Shown piece after piece: positions 1-18,447 of a DNA stretch of 64,000 nucleotides (position 1 is its first letter; every line of letters starts with the position of its first letter). The notes beneath the pieces were generated by a model that was given only the letters and a program-made list of their open reading frames with translations, did no database searches and had not been told where the DNA came from. The position numbers and the translations under genes were made by a program. The stretch covers positions 185,624-249,623 of the forward strand of contig JBDKLC010000005.1 of the NCBI GenBank assembly GCA_039795775.1, written 5' to 3'. This DNA comes from Candidatus Parcubacteria bacterium. Lineage in GTDB: Bacteria > Patescibacteriota > Minisyncoccia > Phycocordibacterales > CAIZLB01.

Positions 1-2122
1 CTTTTGTGGCGTGATTGAGAATATAGGCTGTTTCCACCATTTCTACCATGAATGTAGACAATCCACGACCAATGCTGTCAGAAGCCCCTGAACGCACAAA
101 AATACGGTCTACGAGCGATATTGTAGCCCGACGTGCTGGTACGAAGCACCCTATATGCGCCATGAGTACGATGAGGGCCACTTGTCGCATATACACAGAT
201 TTTCCTGCCATATTCGGGCCTGTAATTAGCAGCAATTGATTGTCCCGTGCATCGAGGGTTGTATCGTTAGGTACAAACGATGTGTCTTTCAGACGCTCTA
301 CGACAGGATGGCGACCATCAAAAATAGAGATGTCGCCATCCGACGTAATAGTTGGTTTGATGTATCGCTCTCGGTCTGCAATTTCTGCGAAGCAGGTGAG
401 ACAGTCGATGGTCGCAATATGTGTTGCAACTTCTTTGAGTTTCACAATATGTGTTAAAACTTCATCAATTAATTCTAAAAATAATTTGTACTCAAGTTTA
501 TTGATCACATCTTGTCCGCGAAGTACTTTGTCTTCGTATTCATGCAAATCTGCAGTGATGAATCGTTCAGCATTGACTGTCGTCTGCTTGCGTACATACT
601 CCTTTGGCACCATGTCGAGATTTGGTTTGCTTACTTCGATGTAATAACCAAACACATTATTGAATCGTACTTTAAGAGATGAAATACCCGTTCGCTCACG
701 TTCACGTTGTTCGAGGTTTGCAATCCACTGTTTACTATCAAAAATTCCATCATGGAGAGCATCGAGTTCAGTAACAACGCCTCTCTTGATGAGTCCTCCT
801 TCTTTTGCATCAAATGGCGGTTGGTCGACGATGAGCGACTGAATTTTTTCGGCAATACTATGAGGCCCAGACACAGCACTGATAGATGCATGTGCCTCAG
901 CAAACAAGGCAGGAACTTTTGAAACATCCGTAAGAAGCTCGCTCACATCTTTCGCAGCATTCAATGTCACTTTGAGATTGATAAGGTCGTGTGGAGTACT
1001 AATACCAACAGCAAGTCGAGAAACAATTCGCTCGATGTCATACATAGTCTGAAGACGTGCACGTACTTTTTGACGAATACTTCGCTCCTGGATAAAAAGA
1101 TCAACGACCGCTAGACGTTCTTCGATATGCTTTTTTACCCGAAGAGGTTCACGTACCCATTGCTTGAGGAGTCGACCACCCATGGCTGTCTTTGTCTCAT
1201 CAATACATTCTATAAATGAACCTCGCTCGTCCGCATCTCGAATAGTTTTGAACAGCTCAAGATTAGAAATAGTCGATGCATCAAGAGATACATATTCGTC
1301 GGATGCATACGTTCGTACCGTCGTCACATGACTGACTTTTTGTTTCTGCGTATGACTCAAATATCCAAACAGCGCGCCTGCTGCCTTGAGAGCTTGGTCT
1401 TTGTCGTGCAAACCAAATGACCGAAGAGTTTTTACATTGAATTGTTTTTTGAAAAGTTGTTCAGCATTCTTTGCATGAGTATCCCACTCAGGAAAATAGT
1501 ACACGTTGAGTGACCGTTCTTTGCGGAGGGCTCCCAGTATTCGTGGATCATTGTATGAAGTTTCATTGACAATACATTCAGCAGGAGAGAATCGCACGTA
1601 TTCGTTTGCAATTGCTTGTTCAAACTGTTCAGTGTACGGCACTTCAGTTACTTGAAAGTCTCCCGTAGAAACATCAGCAAATGCAATACCAACAGATGAG
1701 TCACCAATAGAAATACTCATCGTGTAGTTGTGTTCTTTCGCTGTGAGTGTTTTTTCATCAAGAATAGTACCCGGAGTAACAATACGCACCACTTCTCGCT
1801 CCACAATCCCTTTTCCTGGCTCACTCACTTGTTCACAGATAGCAACTTTGTGTCCAGCTTTTACGAGTTTAGCGATGTACGCATCTGCTGCATGAAAGGG
1901 AACACCGGCCATAGGAATATCGCCGTCTTTGCCACGAGGTCGTTTTGTCAAAATAATATCGAGTGCTTTTGCACCTACGAGCGCATCATCGAGAAAAAGT
2001 TCATAGAAGTCGCCAAGGCGAAAAAGAAGGAGACAGTCGGGATACTGTCGCTTGATGTGCATAAATTGTTGCATCATAGGAGTACTAAACTCTCGTTCTG
2101 CTTCTGGCGTCGGGCTCTGCAT
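1..2122 (-). CDS. mutS: DNA mismatch repair protein MutS. The N-terminus is complete and the C-terminus runs off the window start.
   Basis: The reverse strand reads without a stop from ATG at 2122-2120 down to position 1. The ORF track omits it because there is no stop inside the window. The translation contains TPMMQQF near the N-terminus, GHKVAICEQ, VVRIVTPGT and the Walker A TGPNMAGKS. These are canonical MutS motifs. Confidence 0.9.
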   Translation of the reverse strand, partial: MQSPTPEAEREFSTPMMQQFMHIKRQYPDCLLLFRLGDFYELFLDDALVGAKALDIILTKRPRGKDGDIPMAGVPFHAADAYIAKLVKAGHKVAICEQVSEPGKGIVEREVVRIVTPGTILDEKTLTAKEHNYTMSISIGDSSVGIAFADVSTGDFQVTEVPYTEQFEQAIANEYVRFSPAECIVNETSYNDPRILGALRKERSLNVYYFPEWDTHAKNAEQLFKKQFNVKTLRSFGLHDKDQALKAAGALFGYLSHTQKQKVSHVTTVRTYASDEYVSLDASTISNLELFKTIRDADERGSFIECIDETKTAMGGRLLKQWVREPLRVKKHIEERLAVVDLFIQERSIRQKVRARLQTMYDIERIVSRLAVGISTPHDLINLKVTLNAAKDVSELLTDVSKVPALFAEAHASISAVSGPHSIAEKIQSLIVDQPPFDAKEGGLIKRGVVTELDALHDGIFDSKQWIANLEQRERERTGISSLKVRFNNVFGYYIEVSKPNLDMVPKEYVRKQTTVNAERFITADLHEYEDKVLRGQDVINKLEYKLFLELIDEVLTHIVKLKEVATHIATIDCLTCFAEIADRERYIKPTITSDGDISIFDGRHPVVERLKDTSFVPNDTTLDARDNQLLLITGPNMAGKSVYMRQVALIVLMAHIGCFVPARRATISLVDRIFVRSGASDSIGRGLSTFMVEMVETAYILNHATK

Positions 2123-2180
2123 ATTGGATGCATTATAACATTTAAAATTTGTGAGCCGAAAAGATGAGGGAAATATGAGA

Positions 2181-2230
2181 AAAATATAAAACCCCTGGAG
2201 CCGAAGCGCTCCAGGGGTGCATGTTTTATT
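2181..2230 (-). terminator. Rho-independent terminator downstream of the methyltransferase gene.
   Basis: A perfect GC-rich inverted repeat, cccctggagc and gctccagggg, has a short loop. It is flanked by A-rich and T-rich runs. Confidence 0.6.
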
Positions 2231-2242
2231 TGTATTTGTGGG

Positions 2243-3136
2243 CTAGCCGACCGTAGGGGTTGCCACAAACATGTTGTATCGGTTCAGGCCGAGCTGGCCG
2301 CACGACAGCAGACGGTTGTCGCCCACGAGTTCTTGGTCGTCCACGTTCCAGCCGTTGAGGCGTAGTAACGTTTCAAACTCATCGCTTGGTGCAGTGGCCC
2401 ACGGCAGAGGGAGGTTGCGTCCATATTTCAGGACACGCTCCATGAAGTAGGCATTGAGCAGCTGGATGTTGGTCTCCAGGAAACTGCCATCGAGTGGCAC
2501 AGGCTCCACAAACACCACCGGCCCTTGGACAGCTTTCCGCAGCGCTTTGAGTGTCGCCACTCTGGATTCGGGTTCGATGTAACTGAGCACATCTACCACA
2601 AGAGCTCCAGTGAACTGATCCTTTGAGAAGCCCATTCCGTCTGGAGTGCCACCCAGCTGATGGAAGGGCACTCTGCAACCAACATCCTGTTGGTCAGTGA
2701 GGTCTGCTCCGAGCACATCGATTTCACTTTGCAGTTGAAGCAACTTGCTGATAGCAGCGTCGCCGCAGCCAAAGTCGAGCACGATGCCACCCGTGTGGGT
2801 GAGGTGCGGTGCGACCAGAGTGTGAATCTTTGATGCACGTTCCTCAAAGGCTGATGCCAAAGCGGTGGGGAAGTGTTTTCCTTCCAGTCCGCGTGTGTTT
2901 ATCCAAAGACCCTCGAGCATTGCATTTGCAATATATTCGATGGTCTCAAGTGGACAATTTCCGACTTGGTAGATCGTCAGCATCGCTGGCACGACTTTTT
3001 CTGCGTTATCTGCAGCGACACCGATGTGTTTGAGCATCGCGATCCAATCCTCTCGAATTCGGTCACGAACTTGGCTTTGTTTGAGCGCAGCTTGAATGAG
3101 CTGCAGCATATCTTCTAACGGGCGTGGTTGCGCCAT
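2243..3136 (-). CDS. SAM-dependent methyltransferase (class I).
   Basis: A 297 aa ORF carries the motif VLDFGCGDAAISKLL, which is a glycine-rich SAM-binding motif I. The gene is GC-rich relative to its surroundings. A canonical SD, AAGGAGGT, sits 4 nt upstream of the ATG. Confidence 0.7.
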   Translation of the reverse strand: MAQPRPLEDMLQLIQAALKQSQVRDRIREDWIAMLKHIGVAADNAEKVVPAMLTIYQVGNCPLETIEYIANAMLEGLWINTRGLEGKHFPTALASAFEERASKIHTLVAPHLTHTGGIVLDFGCGDAAISKLLQLQSEIDVLGADLTDQQDVGCRVPFHQLGGTPDGMGFSKDQFTGALVVDVLSYIEPESRVATLKALRKAVQGPVVFVEPVPLDGSFLETNIQLLNAYFMERVLKYGRNLPLPWATAPSDEFETLLRLNGWNVDDQELVGDNRLLSCGQLGLNRYNMFVATPTVG

Positions 3137-3254
3137 ATATACCTCCTTGTTTAGGTTTAGACTACGGGTTAAGAAGGCACCAATACAGATGTAAGGTGCT
3201 TTTCGTATACTATTATACTACAAAACGTGTAAAAAGTAAAGCGTATGAAGGTGT

Positions 3255-3503
3255 ATGAAAGCGTTTCAAATCGTGTGTCCGACATGTACAATTGTATACA
3301 TCATGAATATACATACACTTGCTCACAACGGAGTCATCCATACAAGTGCGGCCGAATCAGCAGCACACGTTTCAGCGAATACATCATCAGTACCAGCACA
3401 TTCTTTTGTAGAACATCACGCAGTACATATAGTTCTTATTGGTGCTGCAATTTTGTATTGCGTATATCTTATTATCTCAGATCGTATCAATCGGGCTCGC
3501 TAA
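3255..3503 (+). CDS. Hypothetical small His-rich protein with a C-terminal TM helix.
   Basis: An 82 aa ORF lies in an otherwise unannotated 350 bp gap. There is no homology signal, and an overlapping ORF occupies an alternative frame. Confidence 0.25.
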   Translation: MKAFQIVCPTCTIVYIMNIHTLAHNGVIHTSAAESAAHVSANTSSVPAHSFVEHHAVHIVLIGAAILYCVYLIISDRINRAR

Positions 3504-3894
3504 GGTATTTAAGATAGTAATCTGCGTTGTTTGAAGAGGCAGTCTTAAAGTGGTGAGTGAATACCATGATACCAATAATGACAGCTGCAACTGCTGTTAC
3601 AAGGACGAATGCTGCAAGAGTATCTTTTATTTTTCCAATGATGGGGTCATGTGCTGGTTCTACTTTATTACACAAATCTTCGATAGCAGTATTTACGATT
3701 TCTGCTCCAAGCACCATTACAATGGCCAAAATAAGAAGTGAAGATTCGACAAAAGAAAAATCAAAATATACTGAACAAAGAATAACGACGAGAGCCGCCA
3801 ATATATGAATTTTGAAGTTGTGTTCTTCTCGGGCTACAGTGGCAAACCCTCGGAGGGCGTGCTGAAATGATCGGAGTACTTTTTTGATTATCAT
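3487..3894 (-). CDS. dgkA: Diacylglycerol kinase / undecaprenol kinase family (DgkA).
   Basis: The protein is 135 aa with three predicted TM helices. It carries the motifs AREEHNFKIH and EIVNTAIE that are typical of prokaryotic DgkA. Confidence 0.75.
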   Translation of the reverse strand: MIIKKVLRSFQHALRGFATVAREEHNFKIHILAALVVILCSVYFDFSFVESSLLILAIVMVLGAEIVNTAIEDLCNKVEPAHDPIIGKIKDTLAAFVLVTAVAAVIIGIMVFTHHFKTASSNNADYYLKYLSEPD

Positions 3895-3925
3895 TGCCTT
3901 ATTTTAATTTACTATTTCTTTAGTA

Positions 3926-4840
3926 TTAATTGAAGATAAGTAAGAGATAATTATCGAGATCTCGTTGGTCGAAGTCATAGAAGAATTTTCCTTCACGCTT
4001 TAGTCGACTCGCAAGGTCTACACCCACAAATCGCCAATGCCACGGTTCATATATATAGTATTTGTTGTTTGGTGGATATGAAAGAGTGAATCCATATGAA
4101 TGAGCATTATTCATAAGCCATGTATACGCTGGAGTTTTTTCAAATCCGTCGAATGAAGCGCCTGTAGCTGATGTTGTGAAGTCGAGAGTAGTTCCGAGTT
4201 GGTGTTCTGAATATCCTTGGTCTGCAGAAAATTTATTTGCTGTTCCTGCACCATATGTAACTTTGTAGCTCGATTTGAGTTGTGCCTGAGTATTGAATGA
4301 TCGATACGCTGAAGCAACTTGAATATCGATACCTTGATTTCGAGCCGAAGAAATCATTTGCTGAAGGTAGGGAGCAACTTTAGAATGAATTTGAAGATCA
4401 CTACTCTTGTTGAAGAGGAACTGAGGAGCAATAGGAGAGAGAGCGTCAGGAGTGTAGTGTTCATTAAGGAAATAAATCTTTGAATATTTTTGAAGAAGTT
4501 GAGGATCAGTTTTACTCAATTTATCTAGTGTTCCGACAGTATCATACACACGTCCGATTTGTTCTTGAACAGTACTATTTTTTGATTGTTCTGTAGCAAG
4601 CACATCTTTGAGAGAAGCACTCTCACCACTAAGTGTGAGCACAATATCATTGAGGGCTTGAATTTTACTTTCTATATTGAGTGTCGATGATGCGATGAGC
4701 TGATCTCGTACGGTTATTTCGTCTTTCAGTTGTCTGAAACGGTACTCGCCGTAAATAGATGCTCCTAATGACAATACAACAATGGCTACTCCAAGAAGAA
4801 CATGTGTCCGTGTTGGAAAATGGCTTAAATGAGGGTTCAT
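3926..4840 (-). CDS. D-alanyl-D-alanine carboxypeptidase, VanY/peptidase M15B family, membrane anchored.
   Basis: An N-terminal TM anchor is followed by a coiled coil. The catalytic region carries SAYRSF, SEHQLGTTLDF and EPWHWRFVG. Confidence 0.75.
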   Translation of the reverse strand: MNPHLSHFPTRTHVLLGVAIVVLSLGASIYGEYRFRQLKDEITVRDQLIASSTLNIESKIQALNDIVLTLSGESASLKDVLATEQSKNSTVQEQIGRVYDTVGTLDKLSKTDPQLLQKYSKIYFLNEHYTPDALSPIAPQFLFNKSSDLQIHSKVAPYLQQMISSARNQGIDIQVASAYRSFNTQAQLKSSYKVTYGAGTANKFSADQGYSEHQLGTTLDFTTSATGASFDGFEKTPAYTWLMNNAHSYGFTLSYPPNNKYYIYEPWHWRFVGVDLASRLKREGKFFYDFDQRDLDNYLLLIFN

Positions 4841-4905
4841 GCCGATAATTGTATCATATTAAAAAACGATCATATTCGTAGAATGAAGCGTGATATACTT
4901 TTTAT

Positions 4906-5859
4906 ATGAAAAAAGGAATTATTATTCTTGCTAGTTTTATTCTTATTGCTGGTGCAGCGGGGAGTATAGTTTTATACACAAATTCATTGCCACAGCAGGC
5001 CGAAGGTCCACAAATCGCTACTTCGACAGACACTGATGTAACAGGTACGACTGATGTAAAGAGTCAGCAAACAAAAGATGAAGAAATTGCGTTGCAAGTA
5101 AGTACATTACTTTTTACAACTATCTATAAGACTACTATCGATGCGCGGACATTGGGTACACCTTCGACACCAACAGTGGGGTACAGGGTAAACGAACATA
5201 TTTTATTGATTTCAAAAAATCCTGAACCTCTTCGGAAGTATCTTTCATTAAATAAAGATATGAGTGCCCCTGTGCAGGAACGATTGTATAAAGAGTATGT
5301 GCTTTCTCTTGTCCTTCCTCGACCAGCGCAACAAGACAATTTTGATGAATACTATAATGATATGCTCAAAGAAAAAACTACATACGAAGAAATAGATACC
5401 ATGTATTCTGTAGATGCATACCAAACAAGCAGTACTACATATTCTGTCATTATGACAAATTTTTCGATGAGTGGGGCATACAATCTCGATCAACATCTCT
5501 ATACATTTTCTCCAAAAGATTATGTTCTTAAGCCTGCTACATTATTTTCAGTTGAAAATAATAAATTGGTAAAACAATCAGGAAAAGATCTAACAAACGT
5601 GTATGTTGATGATAGAGATCCAACAACAGTCCACCTTCTTGGATTCAGAGCTTTTGGTCTGTGGCCATGCTTTATAAATGAAGCATACAAACTCTATGGA
5701 GATAGATTTATTGTTGTATCAAAGACTCAGTTGAAAGGATGTATTGGCACATCGATAGATAGCCCCGATGATATTCCTGAAAACTTTGATGAAACTCCTG
5801 TCGTTATTTATACGACACCTGCATCTATGATAGAGAAGGTAAAGCAGGCAGCTTTATAA
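4906..5859 (+). CDS. Hypothetical secreted or membrane-anchored protein.
   Basis: The 317 aa protein begins with the signal/anchor MKKGIIILASFILIAGAAG. No recognisable motifs were found. Confidence 0.55.
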   Translation: MKKGIIILASFILIAGAAGSIVLYTNSLPQQAEGPQIATSTDTDVTGTTDVKSQQTKDEEIALQVSTLLFTTIYKTTIDARTLGTPSTPTVGYRVNEHILLISKNPEPLRKYLSLNKDMSAPVQERLYKEYVLSLVLPRPAQQDNFDEYYNDMLKEKTTYEEIDTMYSVDAYQTSSTTYSVIMTNFSMSGAYNLDQHLYTFSPKDYVLKPATLFSVENNKLVKQSGKDLTNVYVDDRDPTTVHLLGFRAFGLWPCFINEAYKLYGDRFIVVSKTQLKGCIGTSIDSPDDIPENFDETPVVIYTTPASMIEKVKQAAL

Positions 5860-5943
5860 AATACATACAACAAAAATCCACCGTCAACGACAGGGATTTC
5901 TGGGTTGAAAGTGGATGTGGATGTATGAGCAATTTGGGTTGAA

Positions 5944-6435
5944 TCACTCACGACATATGAAGATCGCTCCTTTTTGATTTCCCTTTGTAATGGAAACTTT
6001 AAGGAGGGCTTGAATACTTGGAATTTTATTCTCCCAAATGTGATGGATCGCGGCATTGTTGCCGTTACCGAGTCTCACCATAAAGATGTCATCGTTGTCG
6101 ATCGCAAGTTGCATAAAGCAAGCGATGAGTTGAATGCTGTAGCCATTTCCTCGGAACTTTTCTGGCACATAGACCGAGAATACCTTCCAAATCTGCTGCT
6201 CCTTTTGGAAGAAGACGTGGCCGATGAATTCTCCTGCATCGTTGTGGAAAAGAAGCCCGTCGTAGCCCATGAGATTCATGAGGACGAGGAGCACCCAATC
6301 AGGTAGCCAGTTACGGAACCATCGGGTCTTGAGGTCGAATGCGCTGCCTTTGTCGGGATTGCGAATACATGTAGCAACGTATGCGCGTTCTGCTTGGTGT
6401 GCTTTTGTGAGTGCACTAACTCGTTGGGTTTTCAT
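5944..6435 (-). CDS. GNAT-family N-acetyltransferase (putative).
   Basis: The 163 aa protein contains FRGNGYS, which is an acetyl-CoA binding Q/RxxGxG/A-like motif, within a GNAT-sized fold. The assignment is a weak inference. Confidence 0.5.
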   Translation of the reverse strand: MKTQRVSALTKAHQAERAYVATCIRNPDKGSAFDLKTRWFRNWLPDWVLLVLMNLMGYDGLLFHNDAGEFIGHVFFQKEQQIWKVFSVYVPEKFRGNGYSIQLIACFMQLAIDNDDIFMVRLGNGNNAAIHHIWENKIPSIQALLKVSITKGNQKGAIFICRE

Positions 6436-6568
6436 AATCGTAAAGAATCTCCGGTTGACTGATGCGTCATTGCGTCAGTTTTTCTGGATACAGAGTACAA
6501 TATGGTTTTTGTTTTGTAAATGTCTCTCTCATCTGTCACTTATCCATGTAAGATGATAAAATTTTGAT

Positions 6569-8080
6569 ATGAAATTTATCGACAACTTTTTGAACTCAGT
6601 CACTATGTACAATCTGGTACTCAAGTGCCTTTGGGTGATTGCGGGTGTAGCTATTGTATTAGGTGCGTTTGGTGTTATTCCATATAGTCCATTATCTCTT
6701 ATCGGTTCATTCCTTACGCTTGCAGTTGTGAGTTGGGCTGTGAATGGACTTTTTGCACATATTTTTAAAGTACCTGCAAACGTTGAATCATATTCGATCA
6801 CAAGTCTCATTTTGTTCTTCATCATGCCGCCAGCAACATCTATCGCTGGGTACGGTGTGCTCGCTCTTACGGCTGCAATTGCAATGGCATCAAAATATCT
6901 GCTTGTTGTGCATCATACACATATTGCTAATCCTGCAGCGTTTGGTGCATTTGTAGTTGGTCTTATAGGATTTGGTGACTCGTGGTGGGTGGGCAACTAC
7001 ATGTCTCTCTATCCATTTCTCATTGTGGCAGGTGCTCTTATCGTAAAAAAGATTCGTCGATGGCCGCTCTTTATCGGGTATGCTCTTGCTGCACTTGTCG
7101 GTTCGTCTATAGTCGCTCTACTCAATGACTTGAGTGTTCCAAGTGTTGCTCTAGGTGTTCTCACCAACGGTGCACTTATATTCTTGGGAACAGTGATGCT
7201 TACAGAGCCGCTGACAATGCCTTCGACTCGAAAGATGCAAATCATCTATGGAGTGATCGTAGGATTCCTTGCTACATTCACCGCGGGCGCCTTCTATGTT
7301 TCTCTCGAGCTTGCTCTTATTATTGGAAACGTATTTGCGTTTGTCGTGAGTCCAAAGTTTCGACTCAAACTGACACTTGTTGCAAAGCGTGCCTTATCAC
7401 CTGATATTCATGAGTTTGAATTTTCTTCAACTGAAAAAATACAGTTTGACCCAGGGCAGTATCTTGAATGGACATTAGCGCATCAGGGTCCAGACTCTCG
7501 AGGAAATAGACGATATTTTACGGTAGCGTCATCTCCGACTGAACAAACAATAAAGCTTGGTATTCGACTTGCTCCAGAAAAGGGAAGTTCATTCAAAAAC
7601 GCTCTTGTTGGTCTTGAAGTAGGACATGCTATTTTTGCAGGACAAATTGCTGGTGATTTCGTGTTGCCAAAAGATACATCAAAGAAAATAGTATTTGTAG
7701 CTGGTGGAATTGGTGTGACTCCATTTAGAAGTATGGCGAAATATCTTATCGACTCAGGTGAAAAACGAGATGTAACTCTTTTTTATGCAGCAATGACTCC
7801 TCAGAGTTTTGTATATTCAGATGTGTTTGCTGAAGCTGCTCAAAAGTTTGGTATGAAAACAGTCAATGTACTTTCTGGTGCAAAAGAAATTCCGCAAGGA
7901 TGGAATGGGGAAGCCGGTTTCCTTACTGCTGACATGATTAAAAAATATATTCTAGAATATACTGATCATTTGTTCTATCTCTCTGGTCCAAATGGTATGG
8001 TAATGGCGTACAAAGACATGCTCAAGAAGGCTGGAGTTATTGAAACAAATATTCATACAGACTATTTCCCAGGGTTCTAG
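6569..8080 (+). CDS. Membrane oxidoreductase. An N-terminal polytopic domain resembling the RnfD/NqrB (NQR2_RnfD_RnfE) family is fused to a C-terminal FNR-like FAD/NAD(P)-binding domain.
   Basis: The protein is 503 aa. The first roughly 270 aa are multi-TM and contain MLTEPLTMPSTRK, which resembles the D/E-P-x-T-x-P motif seen in RnfD/NqrB proteins. The C-terminal half carries RRYFTVASSP (the RxYS FAD motif), GGIGVTPF (the NAD(P) motif) and YLSGPNGMV. Confidence 0.7.
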   Translation: MKFIDNFLNSVTMYNLVLKCLWVIAGVAIVLGAFGVIPYSPLSLIGSFLTLAVVSWAVNGLFAHIFKVPANVESYSITSLILFFIMPPATSIAGYGVLALTAAIAMASKYLLVVHHTHIANPAAFGAFVVGLIGFGDSWWVGNYMSLYPFLIVAGALIVKKIRRWPLFIGYALAALVGSSIVALLNDLSVPSVALGVLTNGALIFLGTVMLTEPLTMPSTRKMQIIYGVIVGFLATFTAGAFYVSLELALIIGNVFAFVVSPKFRLKLTLVAKRALSPDIHEFEFSSTEKIQFDPGQYLEWTLAHQGPDSRGNRRYFTVASSPTEQTIKLGIRLAPEKGSSFKNALVGLEVGHAIFAGQIAGDFVLPKDTSKKIVFVAGGIGVTPFRSMAKYLIDSGEKRDVTLFYAAMTPQSFVYSDVFAEAAQKFGMKTVNVLSGAKEIPQGWNGEAGFLTADMIKKYILEYTDHLFYLSGPNGMVMAYKDMLKKAGVIETNIHTDYFPGF

Positions 8081-8090
8081 ATAAAAGAAA

Positions 8091-8150
8091 ACCGCCAATT
8101 CATACAGGTTGTCAGGCTGCATGAACGGCGGCTTGTTTTCTTCGGAGTCG
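8091..8150. terminator. Imperfect hairpin between convergent genes.
   Basis: ccgccaattcat pairs with atgaacggcgg, followed by cttgttttc. Confidence 0.35.
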
Positions 8151-8176
8151 GAGGACGAGTCCTCTTGTGCTGTGGT

Positions 8177-8839
8177 TTAGGTGACCTCTCCATCGAGCGG
8201 TTGCACGTTGGGGACGAGCGGACCTCGTGGCTGTGGAAACGCCCTGTTTGCACGGGTGCGCAAGGTGCCGAGCACCCAATCAGCAAATGGCAGGACAACG
8301 TTGAAGTTGTTGTCAGACATATACCGATGATGGAGTAAGTGATGACCGTTGAGCTTTTTGAAAATCCAGCCCACCAGTTTGAACTTAAACAGACGGCGTG
8401 GTCGCGGCAGGTGCATGCACCAGTGAAGGTATTCATACGTTGCATAGTATGCTGCAAGCACTGAGGCCAAGGTGATCATAGGCCACCACACACCCATCCA
8501 GATGCCCAAAGGCAAGAGTGGAAGAGATGCGATGACGATGAGCACGGGTCCATTCCACGGTGCCATTGGAATTGTTTTGGCATCTACGGGTCTTTGCAGC
8601 TCGTAGGTTTTGTCGGATCTAAATGTTCTGTGATGCACACGGGCGTGCGCGTCATAGGCATAGTTGAATCCAAAAAATGGTTGGTGCATGACGTAGCGGT
8701 GCAGAAACCACTCGAAGAACGATGTGTAGAGCACACATCCGATGAGAGTTAATGTGAAGATCATATGAAATGAGCGTTGGTTGTTTGTCAGAATCAGTGA
8801 AGTGCTGTTTTGGACGGTAGATTGCAGAATGACGCACAC
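8177..8839 (-). CDS. Fatty acid hydroxylase / sterol desaturase superfamily membrane protein. The exact start is uncertain.
   Basis: Three histidine boxes are present: HRYVMH, HARVHH and HHLLHH. The protein has several TM segments. The gene is GC-rich relative to the genome. Confidence 0.65.
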   Translation of the reverse strand: MCVILQSTVQNSTSLILTNNQRSFHMIFTLTLIGCVLYTSFFEWFLHRYVMHQPFFGFNYAYDAHARVHHRTFRSDKTYELQRPVDAKTIPMAPWNGPVLIVIASLPLLPLGIWMGVWWPMITLASVLAAYYATYEYLHWCMHLPRPRRLFKFKLVGWIFKKLNGHHLLHHRYMSDNNFNVVLPFADWVLGTLRTRANRAFPQPRGPLVPNVQPLDGEVT

Positions 8840-8914
8840 GCGTATTCAGGTCCGTTCGTAGTATACACGAAATTGTGCGTTATGATTATTTAAAAGTTAT
8901 TGAAAAAGTAGGTA

Positions 8915-8962
8915 ACAGAAAACCCACCATATCGCAGATGGGCATCTGTGATACGGTGGGTG
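8915..8962 (-). terminator. Hairpin terminator downstream of the 9060-9524 gene.
   Basis: An 18 bp stem with two mismatches pairs cccaccatatcgcagatg with catctgtgatacggtggg. The minus strand is T-rich after the stem. Confidence 0.45.
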
Positions 8963-9059
8963 ATTACATCATCCCACGTAGCGGCTCCTTCCGGTGTAAT
9001 AACCATTAGGGCCGACTTCATACTGGTATTTTCCGATACGTTGCCAGATCATAGTGTTG

Positions 9060-9524
9060 TTAAGCGTTGGCTTTCTCAGCGTTGTGTTGCGTGACATCTT
9101 GTCCACGCCAGAATGTCCAGGAAGCGGAGCATCCGAGGTGCGACACTTTGAGGCCGACGATTCCGAGGAACGTCGTGGAGATCATCCAGAGATTTCCTTC
9201 TTGGTGAGTCAGGACGATGCTGTTGTAGAGCACCACTTCTTCATTGAGGAAGTCGCCTTGAGTGTGGAAGAACCAAGAGCCGAAGCTCGAGTGTTGAAAC
9301 CACATCATGATCATGGGAAACATGATGATGAAGCAGGCGATCATGGTTGCTAGTGAGATTGCCCACAGCAAGGGCCAATACCAGGCGCCTTCCGTTTTTC
9401 GGATGGAGCGCAGGGCGTTGGCAACATGGGTGCTGATATTTTGGAACGCGATTATGAGGCTAAACGGTAGGACCCACAGCGAAGTGAGACCGAGGAGTAG
9501 TGCGGTGATGATGACGAGGTGCAT
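9060..9524 (-). CDS. Hypothetical polytopic membrane protein.
   Basis: The 154 aa protein has 4-5 predicted TM helices and no recognisable motif. It is GC-rich like the neighbouring hydroxylase gene. Confidence 0.5.
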   Translation of the reverse strand: MHLVIITALLLGLTSLWVLPFSLIIAFQNISTHVANALRSIRKTEGAWYWPLLWAISLATMIACFIIMFPMIMMWFQHSSFGSWFFHTQGDFLNEEVVLYNSIVLTHQEGNLWMISTTFLGIVGLKVSHLGCSASWTFWRGQDVTQHNAEKANA

Positions 9525-9552
9525 ATTATGTGATATTCAGGTTGTGTTGAGT

Positions 9553-9598
9553 TTAAAACTGCTTGTAAGACACAATGTCTTACGTCTTAGAAGCAGTT
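9553..9598. repeat. Nested inverted repeat (compound hairpin) in the intergenic region.
   Basis: aaaactgctt pairs with aagcagtttt as an outer 10 bp stem. gtaagaca pairs with tgtcttac as an inner 8 bp stem. Confidence 0.5.
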
Positions 9599-9698
9599 TT
9601 AGAATGTCACATCTGCGTATATAATAGCATACTTTATTATAAAAGTCAAGCATAACTATGGCTCAACAAAGGGATAAAGCGCGTTTTCTATGAATAAA

Positions 9699-10589
9699 TT
9701 ACTCCGTAAAAAATCCTCCTGGAAATGCTATAGAGTGGGTGAGTGAACCGTCCGCATGGAGAATAGCGTAGTCAAAATGAAATTCTTTTTGAAGCTTTTC
9801 AGGAGACACGAAAAAGAGCGCTGTAGTTAGGGCATCAGCAAGAAGAGTTGTTTCTGCAACTACCCACAAGGCAGTTATATGTCGTGGCGACTCAACAGAA
9901 TGTGCATCAATAACGTGATGAAATTTATTCCATGTTCGTCTATTGCCGGCGGATCCACAAATACTTTTGTTTACAATCGTTGCTACCCCAATTGCCTTTG
10001 ACGTATCACGTGGATCTTCAAGTCCTATCTGCTGAGGTATCTTGTCCTTACTTGTATGTAAAATATCACCGCCTGCATTGATAGTGTATTCTTCGATTCC
10101 TGAGTCTGTCATAAGCTGACCGACAATATCTATAATGTGTCCCTTACCCAAAGCGCCGAAGTCGAGAGACACGGGCTCTTTAATGATGAGTTTTGGATGT
10201 GGTCCGTCATTATGATATTCCATAACATCTTTCCACTTTTTTGCAGGGAGAATTTTTTCTTTTGGAGTGAGTGAATACTGCGCATCATATCCTGCATCTA
10301 CAAGTACTTGGCCAATGAGGGGTGTCATTTTGCCATGTGTAATGCTGTACAACTTTTCGTAGAGTGAAAGCATAGGTCCTGCATCTGTTGGAAGGTTGTA
10401 GGTGCCAGCAGTTTTTCTGATTTGTGCAATGAGTGAACCGTCTCGAAATCGTGAGTATGTTTCTTCAAAGTGTTCGATGCGAGCTTTTACCACATTAGCA
10501 ATAGAATCAGACGCGATAACGTCTGATTCTATAAAATCAATCTTCCATTCAGTACCAATTGCACGAAATGCAAATTGGAAGTGAGTCAT
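9699..10589 (-). CDS. apbE: FAD:protein FMN transferase (ApbE family).
   Basis: The 296 aa protein contains GALGKGHIID, INAGGDIL and GSAGNRR in an ApbE-like core. No N-terminal signal peptide is evident. Its start overlaps the stop of the upstream FMN-binding gene in a TAATG arrangement. Confidence 0.8.
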   Translation of the reverse strand: MTHFQFAFRAIGTEWKIDFIESDVIASDSIANVVKARIEHFEETYSRFRDGSLIAQIRKTAGTYNLPTDAGPMLSLYEKLYSITHGKMTPLIGQVLVDAGYDAQYSLTPKEKILPAKKWKDVMEYHNDGPHPKLIIKEPVSLDFGALGKGHIIDIVGQLMTDSGIEEYTINAGGDILHTSKDKIPQQIGLEDPRDTSKAIGVATIVNKSICGSAGNRRTWNKFHHVIDAHSVESPRHITALWVVAETTLLADALTTALFFVSPEKLQKEFHFDYAILHADGSLTHSIAFPGGFFTE

Positions 10590-11101
10590 TAGCTTCGAGC
10601 TTTAACTTTGATCTGCTCTACAGCATTGTTGAAACCAATTGGTGTGAGAGATGCGCCTGATACGTTGCCAAGTTTGAGACTTGCGATACTTTTGCCAACT
10701 ACTTGTGCTTTGAATCCAGAAATGAATTTAGCCTGAAGATCTTTAGAAATTGGGTTGATAGCTTTTGCTGTAACTGTAGCGTCTGTTACTACATCGCCTT
10801 TGAGCACGAGACTTACATCAATACTTTCAGCGCCAGCTGGTGACTTGTATGAGCCAGAAGCTGTGTATGTGCCATCTTTGTATGATTGAGTACTTTTTGG
10901 CTTGTCAGCTGGTGTTGTTGTAGGAGCCGATGTTCTAGAAGAAGTAGTTGTTGAAGATGTTGTTGCAGTTGCACCAGCTGAAGTAGTGTTATCAATTATA
11001 GGAGTAGGTGTTGTTGTAGACTGAGGTCGTGTTGAATACATACCTGCAATAATAAGTGCTGCTACCACGATGATTCCGATATATGTTTTCTTTGAATTCA
11101 T
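10589..11101 (-). CDS. Membrane-anchored FMN-binding domain protein, a candidate flavinylation substrate.
   Basis: An N-terminal TM anchor is followed by a Thr/Ser/Pro-rich linker and an FMN_bind-like domain. That domain begins DGTYTAS and ends GNVSGASLTPIGFNNAVEQIK. The second segment carries the SGAT-type flavinylation motif with Ser in place of the terminal Thr (SGAS). Confidence 0.7.
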   Translation of the reverse strand: MNSKKTYIGIIVVAALIIAGMYSTRPQSTTTPTPIIDNTTSAGATATTSSTTTSSRTSAPTTTPADKPKSTQSYKDGTYTASGSYKSPAGAESIDVSLVLKGDVVTDATVTAKAINPISKDLQAKFISGFKAQVVGKSIASLKLGNVSGASLTPIGFNNAVEQIKVKARS

Positions 11102-11166
11102 TGTTTCTAAATGTCTAAATTAACTAAATTTGTTGTGTTGATTATACCGAATAGCCCAGATTTTGG

Positions 11167-11823
11167 CTAATCAGGCATTTTTTCTCCTTCATCTCGCCAC
11201 TCGATTATCTTGCCGGACTTACGTTCCATGCGGTCAGCCCTTCGGAGGTGGCGTTTGTTTTTTGATGGGAGGTAAGGGAAGTGAGGAGACTTGTCGACTA
11301 CGGCTGCGAGATCAAAGAGCTCTTCTTCTGTTGTGAGCCACTCTGTACCAAATCGTTTGAGGTTGATGGGACGTGAATAGCTTTGGAGGACTTTGTCGCC
11401 TGTCGTATTCACAAAATATTCATGAAAATATGACATGGCAAGTTCTCTCACTGTGCGATATACAGGATCACGAAATCGTACGGTCGTATGATTTGTTTTT
11501 GAAATTGCTCCCCAGAATCCGTTTATTTTGTACAACGCAACGCAGTGATCATCATCGTAGGGATACGCTTTCATATTCATAATAAGTGGTTCATGCCCGT
11601 GGAGCCACAGTGTAGCTGCCGCAAAAAGTGCTGCTTCCATACAGTGCGCCTTTTTGTGACGGAGTACACGACGCGGAGACATGTTTGTCTCGCCATCATA
11701 TTCAAAATTGATAGAAAGCGTATCAAGAAAATCTTGTATTTGTATTGGCGTAGAAAGCGACTGCAATTTTTTCAGTTCTGATGCATTGAATATTTCTTTG
11801 GCGATTTTTTGAAACGATGACAT
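11167..11823 (-). CDS. Hypothetical protein with a papain/transglutaminase-like Cys-His signature.
   Basis: The 218 aa protein contains KAHCMEAALFAAATLWLHGH. The family assignment is tentative. Confidence 0.5.
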   Translation of the reverse strand: MSSFQKIAKEIFNASELKKLQSLSTPIQIQDFLDTLSINFEYDGETNMSPRRVLRHKKAHCMEAALFAAATLWLHGHEPLIMNMKAYPYDDDHCVALYKINGFWGAISKTNHTTVRFRDPVYRTVRELAMSYFHEYFVNTTGDKVLQSYSRPINLKRFGTEWLTTEEELFDLAAVVDKSPHFPYLPSKNKRHLRRADRMERKSGKIIEWRDEGEKMPD

Positions 11824-11904
11824 GTCTTTCTATTTTACAGTATTTATAACAGAAAACCCCAGCAGAGCTCGAGTCTCTGTGGGGTATTTTGGATGGTTGG
11901 GTGA

Positions 11905-12207
11905 TTACCAAATTAAGTCGTGGCGGCCTTCTTTCCGCTTGAGCCAAAGTGGAGCATCGTGCAGCCAGTCATAGTCATGTAGGCGTGCGTATCCATTTTT
12001 GTCTTGAATGCTTACGGTAGTGGCGATGCCTACTTTTTCAGGTTCTTTGAAAAAAGGGTTGGAGCCTCCCATAATGAGAATTCCTTCCCAGGCTTCTTCC
12101 GCAGTGCGACCGCGGGTTGTAGTTATTTTTTTGGGATCGTCAGATGTTGGTTTCTCTCTATACCCAAAGGTCCAGAGAGGGAACGTGTCGTCGGGATAGA
12201 TGGGCAT
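11905..12207 (-). CDS. Hypothetical protein.
   Basis: A 100 aa ORF with no motif. Its codon usage is compatible with coding. Confidence 0.4.
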   Translation of the reverse strand: MPIYPDDTFPLWTFGYREKPTSDDPKKITTTRGRTAEEAWEGILIMGGSNPFFKEPEKVGIATTVSIQDKNGYARLHDYDWLHDAPLWLKRKEGRHDLIW

Positions 12208-12267
12208 AGGTGCTTTCTTGTTGAGTTTCTTCTAGTATCAAAATACGTTAAATAATCAGATTTGTCT

Positions 12268-12312
12268 AGGTTAAAAGAAAAGGCGCCCGAATCCGCGAGG
12301 ATTCGTGCGCCT
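12268..12312 (-). terminator. Hairpin terminator after the 12337-12906 gene.
   Basis: ggcgcccgaatcc pairs with ggattcgtgcgcc over 13 bp with one mismatch. The minus strand is T-rich after the stem. Confidence 0.5.
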
Positions 12313-12336
12313 TGATTGCTGGAGTGTTTCCAGTGG

Positions 12337-12906
12337 TTACTTCTTGGCCTGGGTGTTCTGATTGGACGTGGTGTTTTGACTGTAGGTCAGGAGCATAGTC
12401 CCGTCGGCTTGTGGCTCCCTATTTATCCTCATATCTTTGCGTTGATCTTCGGATAAAGACATGAGCCACTCTTGTATGCTTCTAAAGTCAGCAGACTTTT
12501 TCTTTTCGTCCATAAGCCTTACGACAAAGGTTTTGACACCTTTTGGGGTCGCCGCTTCCTTGATTTCATCAGAGGCTGGTTTGTTTTCGCCTTTGACGTT
12601 CTGCTTGAACGTGACCTTGTAATTGAAAATCACGAGCACGCTGCCGTCGGCTCGGGCCACCGAGCTTCGGCTGATGACCTCGCGGTTGGTCTCGGGAAGA
12701 CCCGCGAGCCATTCGTTGATGTCATTGAGCTCGGCATCGATGCCTTGGGCGTCCTTGGCGGTCAGGACAAAGGCCTTGATGCGTTCGGAGGTCGTCGTTT
12801 GCTTGACTTGTTCGAAGCCTGGTAGATCTTCGTTGCCGCCCGCTTGGACGTTTGAGGCAGTGAAGCAGAGTGCCAGACTGAGAAGTATTGAATAGATGGT
12901 TTTCAT
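12337..12906 (-). CDS. Secreted protein with two tandem domains of about 65 aa.
   Basis: The N-terminus is the signal peptide MKTIYSILLSLALCFTASNVQA. Two internally similar repeats begin VKTFVLTAKDAQ and VKTFVVRLMDEK, and both contain the motif EWL. The gene is GC-rich. Confidence 0.6.
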   Translation of the reverse strand: MKTIYSILLSLALCFTASNVQAGGNEDLPGFEQVKQTTTSERIKAFVLTAKDAQGIDAELNDINEWLAGLPETNREVISRSSVARADGSVLVIFNYKVTFKQNVKGENKPASDEIKEAATPKGVKTFVVRLMDEKKKSADFRSIQEWLMSLSEDQRKDMRINREPQADGTMLLTYSQNTTSNQNTQAKK

Positions 12907-12960
12907 GGATTGTATGTGTATAGTAGCTGTGTTTTTGGATCACAACTCAACAAGAGCGTT

Positions 12961-13016
12961 GAGCTGCATCTGAGAAGGCAGACAATGTCTGCGCTCTCAG
13001 ATGCAGCTCTTTTCCA
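12961..13016 (+). terminator. Strong hairpin terminator-like element.
   Basis: A perfect 15 bp stem, gagctgcatctgaga and tctcagatgcagctc, has a loop containing the inner hairpin gcagaca and tgtctgc. TTTTCC follows the stem. Confidence 0.55.
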
Positions 13017-13126
13017 TCTATATTCTATATAATGTACTTTACCTATATTATTATATCACAATATGCTGTTTTGTCAAACTAGATTTAAACAAAAATCGTC
13101 CATATTTCTATGGGCGATGTTTATTT

Positions 13127-13552
13127 CTAACTTTTCATTGGTTCTACCTGGAAGTTGAGCATCCACTCTACACCGTACTTGTCAGTCACTACACCGAAGA
13201 TAGCACCCCAGAATGTTGGTTCTGGTGCCATGAAAACGTTGCCGCCTTCTGAAAGCTTTGCAAAAATGTCTCGAAGCTGCTGTTCACTTTCTAAGTTGAG
13301 TGACATACCTACGTTGTCTCCGATAGTTGCTTTGTCTTGCATCATGTCCATTCCTACGAAAGTGATTGGGCCTGCTGTAAGAATAGAATGCATAATGTTG
13401 TTCTGCTTTTCTTCTGGCATATCTTTTGCCATTGGAGAATCTTTCACAAGCATAGTTTCGAGCGTGCCTCCAAATACTGATGTATAAAAATTCATACCTT
13501 CTGTACCTTTGTTATCGTTGAAACGAATGAACGGTGTAAGTGTTGTTGTCAT
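13127..13552 (-). CDS. VOC-family (glyoxalase/PhnB-like) protein.
   Basis: The likely start is MTTTLTPFIRFNDNKGTEGMNFYTSVFGG, which is a PhnB/3-demethylubiquinone methyltransferase-like N-terminus. It is a paralog of the 14228-14656 gene. Confidence 0.65.
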   Translation of the reverse strand: MTTTLTPFIRFNDNKGTEGMNFYTSVFGGTLETMLVKDSPMAKDMPEEKQNNIMHSILTAGPITFVGMDMMQDKATIGDNVGMSLNLESEQQLRDIFAKLSEGGNVFMAPEPTFWGAIFGVVTDKYGVEWMLNFQVEPMKS

Positions 13553-13639
13553 GGTATGCATTCTAATACAAAAGTTGTAAAAACGAAAAACCACCACCCA
13601 CATTCATGGATGGCGGCATCGTGAATGGGGAAGTGGCTG

Positions 13640-13879
13640 TTAGCCTGCGGTCTTTGGAGATCCGCTTGGTTTTTTGGCGAGCTCGTGTATGAGTCGCATC
13701 AGTTCGATAGTGCGACGAGCATGTTCGCTTGGTGAAAGCTGAGGTGCGATTACTCGAACCTTAAATCCACAGCGATGAAACTCTCGCACAACTACATATC
13801 CTGGTTGCATAGGTTGTTTCTCCAGTTGAGGTTGTTGTTGCGTACTGACAGAAGTATCAGTCCGTATGGTATTATACAA
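13640..13879 (-). CDS. Hypothetical small protein.
   Basis: A 79 aa ORF, possibly starting at the internal Met of MQPGYVVVREFHRCGFK. It has no confident family assignment. Confidence 0.3.
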   Translation of the reverse strand: MYNTIRTDTSVSTQQQPQLEKQPMQPGYVVVREFHRCGFKVRVIAPQLSPSEHARRTIELMRLIHELAKKPSGSPKTAG

Positions 13880-13907
13880 TCAATTTGTATAAGGTCAAGT
13901 ATTGGGT

Positions 13908-14216
13908 TTATTTTTTGGATCGAGATCCGAGAATGTATTTTTGTGATGGACTCAGTGCTTTATCTTTTCTATGAGTACAACCAATCCAACAGCATGGACG
14001 TCGTTTGCCGCCTTTGAGTTCTGAAGCCGTTCGCATGACATGCTCTTTTCTTTTTTCTGGAGTCTTTACTGACTGTACCCAGCAAATCCATTCGTTGCGA
14101 GCAAGGGGAGTGATATCTTCCCATGCTGCTAGGGCTTTTTTATCTGCAAGGAGAACTTTTTTGAGATCAGCTGGGAGTGGGTGAGCTACACCACTAGAGA
14201 TACTTGTTTTGATCAT
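13908..14216 (-). CDS. YdeI/OmpD-associated family protein (DUF1801-related).
   Basis: The protein begins PLPADLKKVLLADKKALAAWEDITPLARNEWICWVQSVKTPEKRKEH. This is the signature of the YdeI family. Confidence 0.7.
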   Translation of the reverse strand: MIKTSISSGVAHPLPADLKKVLLADKKALAAWEDITPLARNEWICWVQSVKTPEKRKEHVMRTASELKGGKRRPCCWIGCTHRKDKALSPSQKYILGSRSKK

Positions 14217-14227
14217 ATACAGTTGAG

Positions 14228-14656: not shown

Positions 14657-14947
14657 GTGCTAATCATACCGTGGTATAGAGTATTTTCAACTTTTGTAGA
14701 CCTCGATGAATGATCACCGCTATGGTGTTTTCTCGCTGTCCTGTAATAACTGAAATTTCTCTCAAAGAAAGTCCATCAATATATTTCATTGTAAGAAGTT
14801 TTTGGTATGAGATGGGCAAAAAGCGAAGGAGAAGTATTGGTGGTTACTCCTTCTCCTTGCGGTGATTATCAGTTACTACGTATATCGTCAGTATAAAAAA
14901 GACGAATATAGAAAGTAGCTTATAGCACTGCACATAGTTCGGTACAA

Positions 14948-14990
14948 AAAAGCAACACCTCGAATATATGCCGAGGTGTTGTTTTTTGTA
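14948..14990. terminator. Bidirectional rho-independent terminator.
   Basis: A perfect 10 bp stem, caacacctcg and cgaggtgttg, has an A-run before it and a T-run after it. Confidence 0.6.
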
Positions 14991-15560: not shown

Positions 15561-15587
15561 GAAAAAATGCGTAAGGAATTTTTATGT

Positions 15588-16064: not shown

Positions 16065-16173
16065 AATAATAAGTATACTCTAAAATATTAAAACATTTCC
16101 AGATAAATATAAAAAACAGAAAACCTACCATCGCTCGACAGTGGTTTCTGTGGAGGGATGGTGGGGGTGTGTT

Positions 16174-18443: not shown

Positions 18444-18447
18444 ACAA

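Follow-up and report, generated by a model that had tools for sequence, protein, structure and literature searches.

Only 48% of the 16S rRNAs of Parcubacteria were found to contain an anti-Shine-Dalgarno (anti-SD) motif, the loss of which is linked to that of uL1 (rplA) in the same study (Tsurumaki et al. 2022, PMC9297842), and genomic islands as well as single-gene transfers are common in Patescibacteria, where 83% of the detected transfers are intra-phylum (mSystems 2025, PMC12455944). The stretch studied here touches on both subjects. It consists of 64 kb of chromosomal DNA from a Candidatus Parcubacteria metagenome-assembled genome (MAG) of the Patescibacteria, or Candidate Phyla Radiation (CPR), has a GC content of 41.7% and is called the window in the following. 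The original prediction made on this DNA described islands of GC-rich open reading frames (ORFs) among AT-rich native genes, three of them with canonical Shine-Dalgarno (SD) sequences and one of these a methyltransferase beside mutS. Our best explanation, to which we give a probability of roughly 0.6, is a native background free of SD sequences together with about 11-12 lineage-specific single-gene cassettes that are rich in GC at third codon positions (GC3) and were most likely acquired horizontally, one at a time. The cassettes, 0.3-1.2 kb in length, would be insertions between transcription units, and each would have brought a -35/-10 promoter, a leader of 10-140 nt and a hairpin terminator. 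Three of them would have kept a strong and correctly spaced SD, which was either recently imported with the gene or is still used by the ribosome; which of the two applies depends on whether the lineage kept the 16S anti-SD. We infer horizontal acquisition because of the composition, the singleton status and the empty sites in relatives, which are described below.

The three SDs and the ORFs which they precede are all on the minus strand:

3141-3148 (-), SD AAGGAGGT, separated by 4 nt (by 5 nt if counted from the GGAGG core) from the ATG at 3134-3136 of ORF 2243-3136
2243-3136 (-), methyltransferase ORF of 297 aa, GC 0.543, GC3 0.587, with SD
23992-24002 (-), SD AAAGGAGGTGA, pairing over 11 nt with the canonical 16S tail and separated by 8 nt from the ATG of ORF 23825-23983
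23825-23983 (-), 52-aa ORF, GC 0.516, with SD, coding status uncertain
62354-62359 (-), SD GGAGGA, 9 nt before the ATG of ORF 62030-62344
62030-62344 (-), basic ORF of 104 aa, GC 0.537, with SD, NCBI hypothetical protein RL094_462

All three strings named in the original prediction are present at a workable spacing, with 23825-23983 being read from the minus strand. The sequences upstream of the three ORFs are acaAGGAGGTatatATG for 2243-3136, AAAGGAGGTGAacacccgaATG for 23825-23983 and cGGAGGAaaacagacaATG for 62030-62344. In the same order, the SD complementarity extends over 8, 11 and 6 nt, with 4, 8 and 9 nt between the last matched base and the ATG, and the pairing energies are -12.8, -15.9 and -9.5 kcal/mol against the canonical anti-SD, which is an assumption and may not be this organism's 16S tail. 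The next-best of the 68 gene starts in the window reaches -6.7 kcal/mol and most are near zero. A 16S rRNA was found neither in the window (Rfam) nor in any of the 170 fetched loci (regular expression on the 16S 3' end). The duplex energies at the 68 starts also bear out the claim that hpf, mreB, mraZ, rsmH and lysS have no SD, and mutS has none either. SD-positive are thus 3 of the 11 GC-rich ORFs originally listed and none of the 57 other genes (Fisher p=0.0033). AGGAGG as such is not enriched in the whole window (20 found, 16.4 expected), so that the SD signal lies in the non-random placement of the motif.

Several further observations concern these sites and ORFs. One perfect AGGAGGT is found at 33401-33407 (+) between mreC and frr, 24 nt before the frr ATG and hence beyond SD range, and no alternative start codon is present at SD distance from it. 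In the predicted fold of the leader of the 52-aa ORF (23981-24060, minus strand), the GGUG within the SD is paired to a CACC located upstream of it, and the 5' GUGUUC to a GAACAC just past the SD (minimum free energy -23 kcal/mol, z=-3.5), which resembles a translational switch. For the 104-aa ORF, a single-sequence AlphaFold2 (AF2) model has a predicted local distance difference test score (pLDDT) of 71 overall and of 79-92 for residues 1-50, which are predicted to form a three-helix bundle. No significant fold match was obtained with Foldseek; the best one, with an E-value of 0.49, is among proteins of the helix-turn-helix (HTH) type. The 104-aa ORF may have a small three-helix, HTH-like N-terminal domain in this model.

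The SD census, which had been proposed together with the original prediction, covered the window and 52 related loci. These are loci of at least 8 kb with mreB synteny, cited below with others by their L numbers, and genes with homologs in at least 5 loci were counted as core genes. No more than 2 of 516 core genes have an energy as low as -8.5 kcal/mol, and the energies of core genes as a whole are indistinguishable from those of shuffled upstream sequences, with a mean of -1.31 versus -1.37 and with 0.4% versus 1.1 +/- 0.4% of them reaching -8.5 kcal/mol. The core genes of the clade have no SD signal in these loci. Among the SD-positive ORFs of the relatives, 14 of 16 do not belong to the core genes, and several have a higher GC content than the locus in which they lie. 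Examples of GC-rich, SD-led accessory ORFs are a 330-aa ORF in L140 (ACGGAGGTGGATT, 49% vs 39% GC), a 116-aa ORF in L134, a 197-aa ORF in L128/129 (65% vs 46% GC) and a desaturase-like one in L122. Because the SD-led ORFs in the relatives are mostly accessory, the pattern in the window is a recurring property of the accessory genes of the clade. Isolated hypothetical or accessory ORFs with a strong SD (GGTGGAGG, CCAGGAG and GGAGGGG) were also seen in L170 (8315-8617 and 8807-9220) and L083 (6001-6843), two loci which are otherwise SD-poor and Patescibacteria-like in gene content.

How the native genes start is suggested by a -10-like hexamer, TA[TC][AG][AC]T, located 4-12 nt (mostly 6-7) before the start in 12 of the 68 genes, compared to 2% at random positions; tgatatactttttatATG and tgctatactttcactATG are two examples. 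Native genes that are first in their operon have a TATAAT or TATACT box 6-9 nt before the ATG (for instance those starting at 4906, 20922, 23168, 24252, 54856, 63109 and mutS at 2122), and operon-internal genes have merely A/T-rich sequence upstream. The box of mutS is:

2132-2137 (-), TATAAT of the native leaderless-type mutS promoter, 9 nt upstream of the mutS ATG (2120-2122)

In the core genes of the 52 related loci the -10 box likewise peaks at 6-8 nt, and mutS of L003, L004 and L005 has TATAAT exactly 7 nt before the ATG. This geometry of predicted -10 boxes close to the ATG implies that many native genes would be transcribed into leaderless mRNAs.

The GC-rich ORFs differ from these native genes at the codon level. 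Their mean GC3 is 0.562 (11 island ORFs), whereas native genes have 0.344 +/- 0.064 (Mann-Whitney p=2.7e-7), and the z-scores of the single ORFs against the native genes range from +1.5 to +5.5. The GC and codon-usage comparison thus shows a real enrichment. In most island ORFs GC1 is higher than GC2, which is the pattern of real coding sequence, and the 52-aa ORF is the weakest coding candidate. In addition to the three ORFs with an SD, the following GC-rich ORFs and cassettes were found:

5944-6435 (-), GNAT acetyltransferase, absent from the original list, GC3 0.54, weak SD-like CCGGAG
8177-8764 (-), ORF of the fatty-acid-hydroxylase family, GC3 0.60, C/A-rich leader, no SD
9060-9649 (-), cassette with a 154-aa membrane ORF (9060-9524), GC3 0.70, 25-bp leader hairpin, no SD
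12337-13077 (-), cassette with a 189-aa secreted ORF (12337-12906), GC3 0.64, 137-nt leader with 22-bp hairpin, no SD
29705-30321 (+), cassette A of the priA/mreB gap, with a 144-aa ORF (29804-30238)
30365-31522 (+), cassette B of the priA/mreB gap, with ORF 30557-31429, likely ATG at 30618, GC3 0.63
42825-43535 (+), cassette of the lysS/mraZ gap, with a 179-aa ORF (42869-43408)
52995-53357 (+), 120-aa ORF, GC3 0.59, strongly C/A-rich leader, no SD
55512-56109 (+), cassette with a 144-aa ORF (55675-56109), GC3 0.46, leader of about 130 nt, no SD

Two hypothetical ORFs beside the asparaginase gene, at 16174-16506 (-) and 16547-16918 (-), are also elevated in GC3 and absent from the original list. 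A GAAAGGAA motif, 8-10 nt before the ATG, is common to ORF 16174-16506 and the asparaginase.

The island units consist of a predicted sigma-70-type promoter, a leader, a single ORF and a hairpin terminator, and they stand alone, outside of operons. The best consensus promoters and the strongest terminators of the window flank islands. The predicted promoters, scored by their matches to the 12 consensus positions and some of them with an additional TG, are:

3240-3212 (-), 10/12, sigma-70-like, TTTACT-17-TATAAT, drives the methyltransferase 2243-3136 with a leader of about 70 nt
9649-9621 (-), 10/12, drives 9060-9524
13077-13050 (-), 12/12, TG, TTGACA-16-TATAAT, drives 12337-12906
29705-29732 (+), 11/12, TG, drives 29804-30238
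30365-30393 (+), 9/12, drives 30557-31429
42825-42852 (+), 10/12, drives 42869-43408
55512-55539 (+), 12/12, TTGACA-16-TATAAT, drives 55675-56109
62462-62435 (-), 11/12, TG, TTTACA-16-TATAAT, drives 62030-62344 via a C/A-rich leader of about 85 nt

The predicted terminators are:

2218-2191 (-), 11-bp stem with 8 GC and a T-tract, top-ranked in 1-20000, between the methyltransferase and mutS
23801-23770 (-), 14 pairs, 3' of the 52-aa ORF
30299-30321 and 31492-31522 (+), strong, closing the two priA/mreB cassettes
43522-43535 (+), closing the cassette 42825-43535

The island leaders of 10-140 nt are C/A-rich and G-poor (A.38, C.27, G.14, T.21), with a C/G ratio of 1.9 versus about 1.0 in the native upstream regions (A.37, C.16, G.16, T.32). 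They often open with a stable hairpin, which reaches z = -6.7 for those of 12337 and 9060. With their own promoter, leader and terminator the cassettes would be expressed as leadered monocistronic mRNAs, unlike the host genes.

A palindrome, AGACA-N(1-4)-TGTCT, was found in four copies (9568-9580, 11677-11690, 12980-12990 and 18176-18189), compared to 0.6 expected, and none of 100 shuffles reaches four. Two copies are central in the leader hairpins of 9060-9524 and 12337-12906 and one is upstream of the asparaginase. The palindrome may be a shared operator or RNA element.

Comparison with relatives allows three insertion sites to be recognised. In L059, the closest mutS relative (78% identity), VanY abuts mutS, and both dgkA and the methyltransferase are absent; L003, L004 and L005 have other genes upstream of mutS and no methyltransferase. 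Of 80 relatives, 50 have priA and mreB side by side in divergent orientation, and in roughly half of these 50, including the closest ones L089, L092, L098 and L099, the gap between them is about 30-190 bp, compared to 1990 bp in the window. Similarly, the lysS-mraZ gap is about 120-155 bp in L126, with contiguous greA-lysS-mraZ-rsmH, versus 916 bp in the window. These three empty sites (VanY/mutS, priA/mreB and lysS/mraZ) cover 4 of the 11 ORFs, and since the flanking genes are adjacent in relatives, the segments at the three sites are insertions. The claim that the GC-rich segments interrupt conserved gene strings is therefore right in that genes were inserted at three sites, and is to be amended in that the segments lie in gaps between transcription units. 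Other relatives carry unrelated genes in the priA/mreB slot, which are GC-elevated in the three examined (L091, L093 and L094, the latter LeuD-like), so that this gap is a hotspot. The length of this intergenic region (29648-31635 in the window) varies between 31 bp and 7 kb in the relatives, and the slot is also occupied in L102, L138, L152, L155 and others. A fragment at 30270-30300 resembles part of a tRNA and might have been the scar of an integration, but this idea was rejected, as the fragment has only a 3-bp T-arm-like stem. Next to the cassette of the lysS/mraZ gap, LysS (40880-42808) has a C-terminal DUF2000 domain (residues 507-639), and the L126 ortholog aligns only to residues 1-506; by this sequence comparison, LysS-DUF2000 is a lineage-specific fusion beside the 42869-43408 cassette.

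Eight of the island products were found in a collection of 15 billion proteins, in 90%-identity clusters that hold sequences of this organism only, and the exact 52-aa and 290-aa island products are not in this collection. Most island ORFs have no Pfam or NCBIfam match. Searching for repeats or end motifs common to the islands (blastn-short) gave only chance matches of 12-17 nt, thus the islands are not a repeated mobile element.

There are several points which weigh against acquisition by transfer. Neither a donor nor a close homolog turned up for any of the island ORFs, which makes the transfer an inferred one. In the window there is no integrase or transposase (Pfam), and at the islands there are no flanking direct repeats, tRNA-adjacent sites or shared end sequences. 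Scans of the island ORFs with PHROG and PADLOC gave no matches, and for three ORFs tblastn gave no match among 50,697 records of phages and 72,556 of plasmids, nor did these three match anything in IMG/VR. The synteny comparison reaches 4 of the 11 island ORFs, and it is from the sequence alone that the promoters, the terminators and the leaderless state of native genes were predicted. Furthermore, near-consensus promoters and a common C/A-rich leader style across the cassettes are unexpected for unrelated donors; this common style suggests one shared gene pool, or reshaping in the recipient.

As to the donors, the original prediction had read the islands as repeated acquisition from higher-GC, SD-using organisms. 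The first part, repeated acquisition, is supported by the GC3 shift, the stand-alone units, the singleton clusters and the three empty sites. The type of donor is not shown by these data, as an SD is present in only 3 of the 11 cassettes and homologs of the methyltransferase are found in SD-poor, Patescibacteria-like loci (L083, L087 and L170). Relatives reach 56% GC, so that potential donors with a higher GC content exist within the phylum, and we consider the accessory pool of GC-richer Patescibacteria at least as likely a source as the classical SD-using phyla. For the three SD cassettes a higher-GC, SD-using donor is plausible. The attempt to identify GC-richer relatives as donors by C/A-rich upstream sequences was unsupported: the C/G ratio of core genes is about 1 in every GC class, and C/A-rich leaders in relatives are found only at some accessory ORFs.

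Apart from being imported, the SDs might be working, selected signals, with leadered mRNAs that rely on a retained 16S tail; in this case the SD would say nothing about the donor. We regard this as possible, though doubtful. Without selection, a match of 8-11 nt to the 16S tail at a suitable distance from the ATG would hardly be expected to persist, and the leader of the 52-aa ORF, in which part of the SD is predicted to pair with the upstream CACC, looks like that of a gene with regulated translation. Moreover, a distant homolog of the methyltransferase, P0006 of the SD-poor L083, lies in an unrelated context between ftsI and a Mur ligase and is also led by an SD (GGAGGGG, -9.8 kcal/mol), as are two hypothetical ORFs in the SD-poor L170. 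However, 8 of the 11 leadered cassettes have no SD, which is thus not required for leadered translation here, an SD signal is altogether lacking in the core genes of the clade, and about half of the Parcubacteria 16S rRNAs are without a detectable anti-SD motif (PMC9297842). Within the methyltransferase family, the members in the window, L083 and L088 (a locus in which several other genes have SD-like sites too) are led by an SD and those in L086, L087, L169 and L170 are not, on which grounds the SD was rejected as a conserved property of the family.

A related and more tentative idea is that the rare genes with a perfect SD form a clade-wide accessory class, for which the anti-SD was either kept in order to translate imported leadered genes, or was lost and the SDs are untranslatable 'fossils'. 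If the anti-SD is gone, the loss of SD recognition would be a translational barrier to foreign genes, and the decay of SDs a clock for recent transfer.

It is unlikely that the GC-rich ORFs are native, fast-evolving and lineage-specific genes, for example for host interaction, whose composition results from selection or a local mutation bias. Their near-consensus promoters are of the host type, and neither mobility genes nor donor homologs were found. The asparaginase gene (17029-18063) is a further point for such an origin: it has 48.5% GC and homologs of 56-86% identity, all named ones of which are from Patescibacteria. It is GC-elevated and yet native and conserved, so that a mild GC elevation alone is not diagnostic. 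The synteny around it is not conserved in the L171/L172 relative, whose protein is 76% identical. On the other hand, a GC3 shift of 3-5 standard deviations that is limited to ORF, leader and terminator would be hard to reach from DNA with 34% GC3, the sites are empty in relatives and the same slot is filled by unrelated genes in other relatives, and canonical SDs would need to originate de novo in an SD-free lineage.

Even less probable is that prophages, morons or defence islands, having arrived via phages or plasmids of Parcubacteria, left the cassettes behind as remnants. A promoter, an ORF and a terminator with atypical composition would fit the definition of a moron, and the phages and plasmids of CPR bacteria are poorly sampled. 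In opposition to this, the PHROG, PADLOC, phage, plasmid and IMG/VR searches described above were without a match, there are no phage structural or integrase genes in the window, and the cassettes are scattered singly.

We think it very improbable that the segments are artefacts of assembly or binning, joined from reads of GC-richer organisms. The source is a MAG, and MAG contigs can be chimeric, but the leftmost 13.1 kb of the window, which span four islands, are 100% identical in three assemblies (the NCBI 509-kb, JGI 57-kb and Logan 27-kb contigs), and chimeras yield no such pattern as 11 inserts of 0.3-1.2 kb which are bounded by promoters and terminators and placed in intergenic gaps.

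The methyltransferase ORF 2243-3136 had been suggested as an orphan DNA methyltransferase. We instead identify it, by sequence profiles and a structure model, as a divergent member of a small family of class I S-adenosylmethionine (SAM)-dependent methyltransferases, probably of the small-molecule type. A word-indexed search returned only the protein itself. HMMER detected 47 proteins with E<=1e-3 among 1.84 billion representatives, all with at most 36% identity and the near-full-length ones with at most 28%; they are mostly 270-330 aa long and cover the protein of the window over its full length. The homologs are of mixed origin and occur in unrelated contexts. Named ones are annotated only as generic SAM or UbiE-type methyltransferases, one of them from a Chlorobium MAG. 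In an alignment of 24 sequences, D121, G123 and G125 (motif I, LDFGCGDA), D145, E211, R100 and P245 are invariant, and the protein of the window has lost the near-invariant HH, ETVP and PGTYET motifs of the family. Its Pfam scores of 18.3 and 16.8 bits are below the gathering cut-off of 27, while all 24 family members match Methyltransf_23 at E<=0.01 (best E 5e-14) and most match Methyltransf_11/25/31. The profile matches in the PDB are small-molecule methyltransferases (3i9f, 3l8d, AtmM, RebM, MitM and TleD). The AF2 model (pLDDT 90, predicted template modelling score 0.89) has alternating strands and helices from residue 118, with a four-helix N-terminal domain preceding the class I fold, and its Foldseek matches are all small-molecule methyltransferases, with natural-product O/C/N-methyltransferases at the top (probability 1.0, E ~1e-8). 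As an observation on the N-terminal domain, nine repeated stretches of P0010, a 1104-aa 'WIYLD domain-containing protein' of Buddleja alternifolia, match residues 7-99 (E=2e-9 overall), a similarity to a plant protein that is unexpected for a bacterial helical domain.

None of the DNA methyltransferase families of Pfam (N6_N4_Mtase, MethyltransfD12, DNA_methylase and N6_Mtase) was found in the window protein and 23 homologs, NCBIfam gave only sub-threshold matches to small-molecule methyltransferases and none to DNA methyltransferases for the window protein and two homologs, and a regular expression search of the 297-aa protein detected no DPPY-type ([DNS]PP[YFW]), PCQ or ENV motifs. With the terminator at 2218-2191 and a promoter of its own, mutS is predicted to be transcribed independently of the methyltransferase. 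This insulation and the lack of DNA methyltransferase motifs, families and folds argue that the protein is neither a DNA methyltransferase nor a partner in mismatch repair. A Dam-like enzyme working with MutS/MutL is accordingly the least credible proposal of all, although the gene has a SAM-binding motif and lies beside mutS-mutL on the same strand, considering also that it is absent beside mutS in L003, L004, L005 and L059.

The proteins of the window are labelled RL094_391...462 at NCBI (GenBank MEN96494xx), on a contig of 509 kb. Their Pfam gene content is:

Part 1: mutS, dgkA, vanY, an RnfD-like flavoprotein with ApbE, two glyoxalases, TspO
Part 2: asparaginase, UbiA, fmt, hpf, priA, two mreB paralogs, frr, rseP, proS/hisS, PBP2
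Part 3: greA, lysS, mraZ-rsmH-ftsI, a helicase, a CHASE2 cyclase, a SulP transporter, YqeY, RmuC

Only tRNA-Asn and tRNA-Glu were found in the window (Rfam, ARAGORN), neither of which adjoins an island. The two full-length MreB paralogs (31636-32649 and 36431-37495) are 4 kb apart. Both match all 80 fetched loci of relatives (tblastn), and in L091, L093, L094 and L095 the best matches to each paralog map to separate positions. The ResIII/SNF2-type helicase (50031-51779) has a C-terminal match to the 'integrase repeat unit' (INT_rpt), and the protein at 57454-59367 combines CHASE2, adenylate/guanylate cyclase and TPR domains, an unusual signalling content for a reduced CPR genome. Relatives with 77-91% identical MreB (loci L089-L168) span locus GC contents from 29% to 56%; L092 with 56% and L089 with 41.5% GC both have about 90% MreB identity, an unusually rapid divergence of base composition within one clade.

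For annotation, these results mean that gene finders and start callers trained on SDs will treat native and foreign genes unequally, and separating the two classes improves annotation. The combination of SD and GC3 is a cheap flag for recent imports in SD-free Parcubacteria, and it is seen again in related loci. Should the lineage lack the 16S anti-SD, the three SDs would directly document a recent transfer out of genomes that use SDs, and how, or whether, the SD-led cassettes get translated becomes a question. Otherwise this is typical accessory-gene gain in a CPR genome, and the methyltransferase is one more uncharacterised small-molecule methyltransferase.

Among known systems, the class I natural-product and small-molecule methyltransferases, for example MitM, RebM, TleD, 3l8d and 3i9f, share with the protein of the window the Rossmann-type fold, the DxGxGxG motif and the acidic residue after beta-2, at only 12-18% identity, and differ from it by the extra N-terminal four-helix domain, which is common only to its approximately 46 uncharacterised relatives. 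The orphan DNA methyltransferases Dam, CcrM and Dcm are like it in being SAM-dependent and in standing beside mismatch-repair genes; it differs from them in that it has neither DPPY/NPPY nor PCQ/ENV motifs, lacks a target-recognition domain and matches them neither by family nor by fold.

Phage morons, as described by Hendrix and colleagues, consist of a promoter, a single ORF and an intrinsic terminator, have an atypical composition and lie between conserved genes. The cassettes share this unit architecture and the atypical composition, and differ in having no prophage, nearby phage genes or viral homologs. Bacteroidia also translate independently of SDs, and their exceptional SD genes, for example rpsU, are native, whereas the SD exceptions of the window are accessory, GC-rich and lineage-specific.

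With the SD-independent Parcubacteria whose 16S rRNA is without the anti-SD motif (Tsurumaki et al. 2022, PMC9297842) the window has in common that core genes are without an SD and that there are few strong exceptions. The genomic islands of Patescibacteria (PMC12455944) are alike in being lineage-specific, compositionally atypical genes in streamlined CPR genomes; they derive mostly from intra-phylum transfers and contain many hypothetical proteins, and the cassettes are likewise largely hypothetical. The window differs from them by single-gene cassettes of 0.3-1.2 kb with their own promoter, C/A-rich leader and terminator and without mobility genes, and by three canonical SDs on an SD-free background, SDs not being addressed in PMC12455944. 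The phenomenon is thus a fresh instance of two known kinds, namely transfer into Patescibacteria and Parcubacteria without SD usage.

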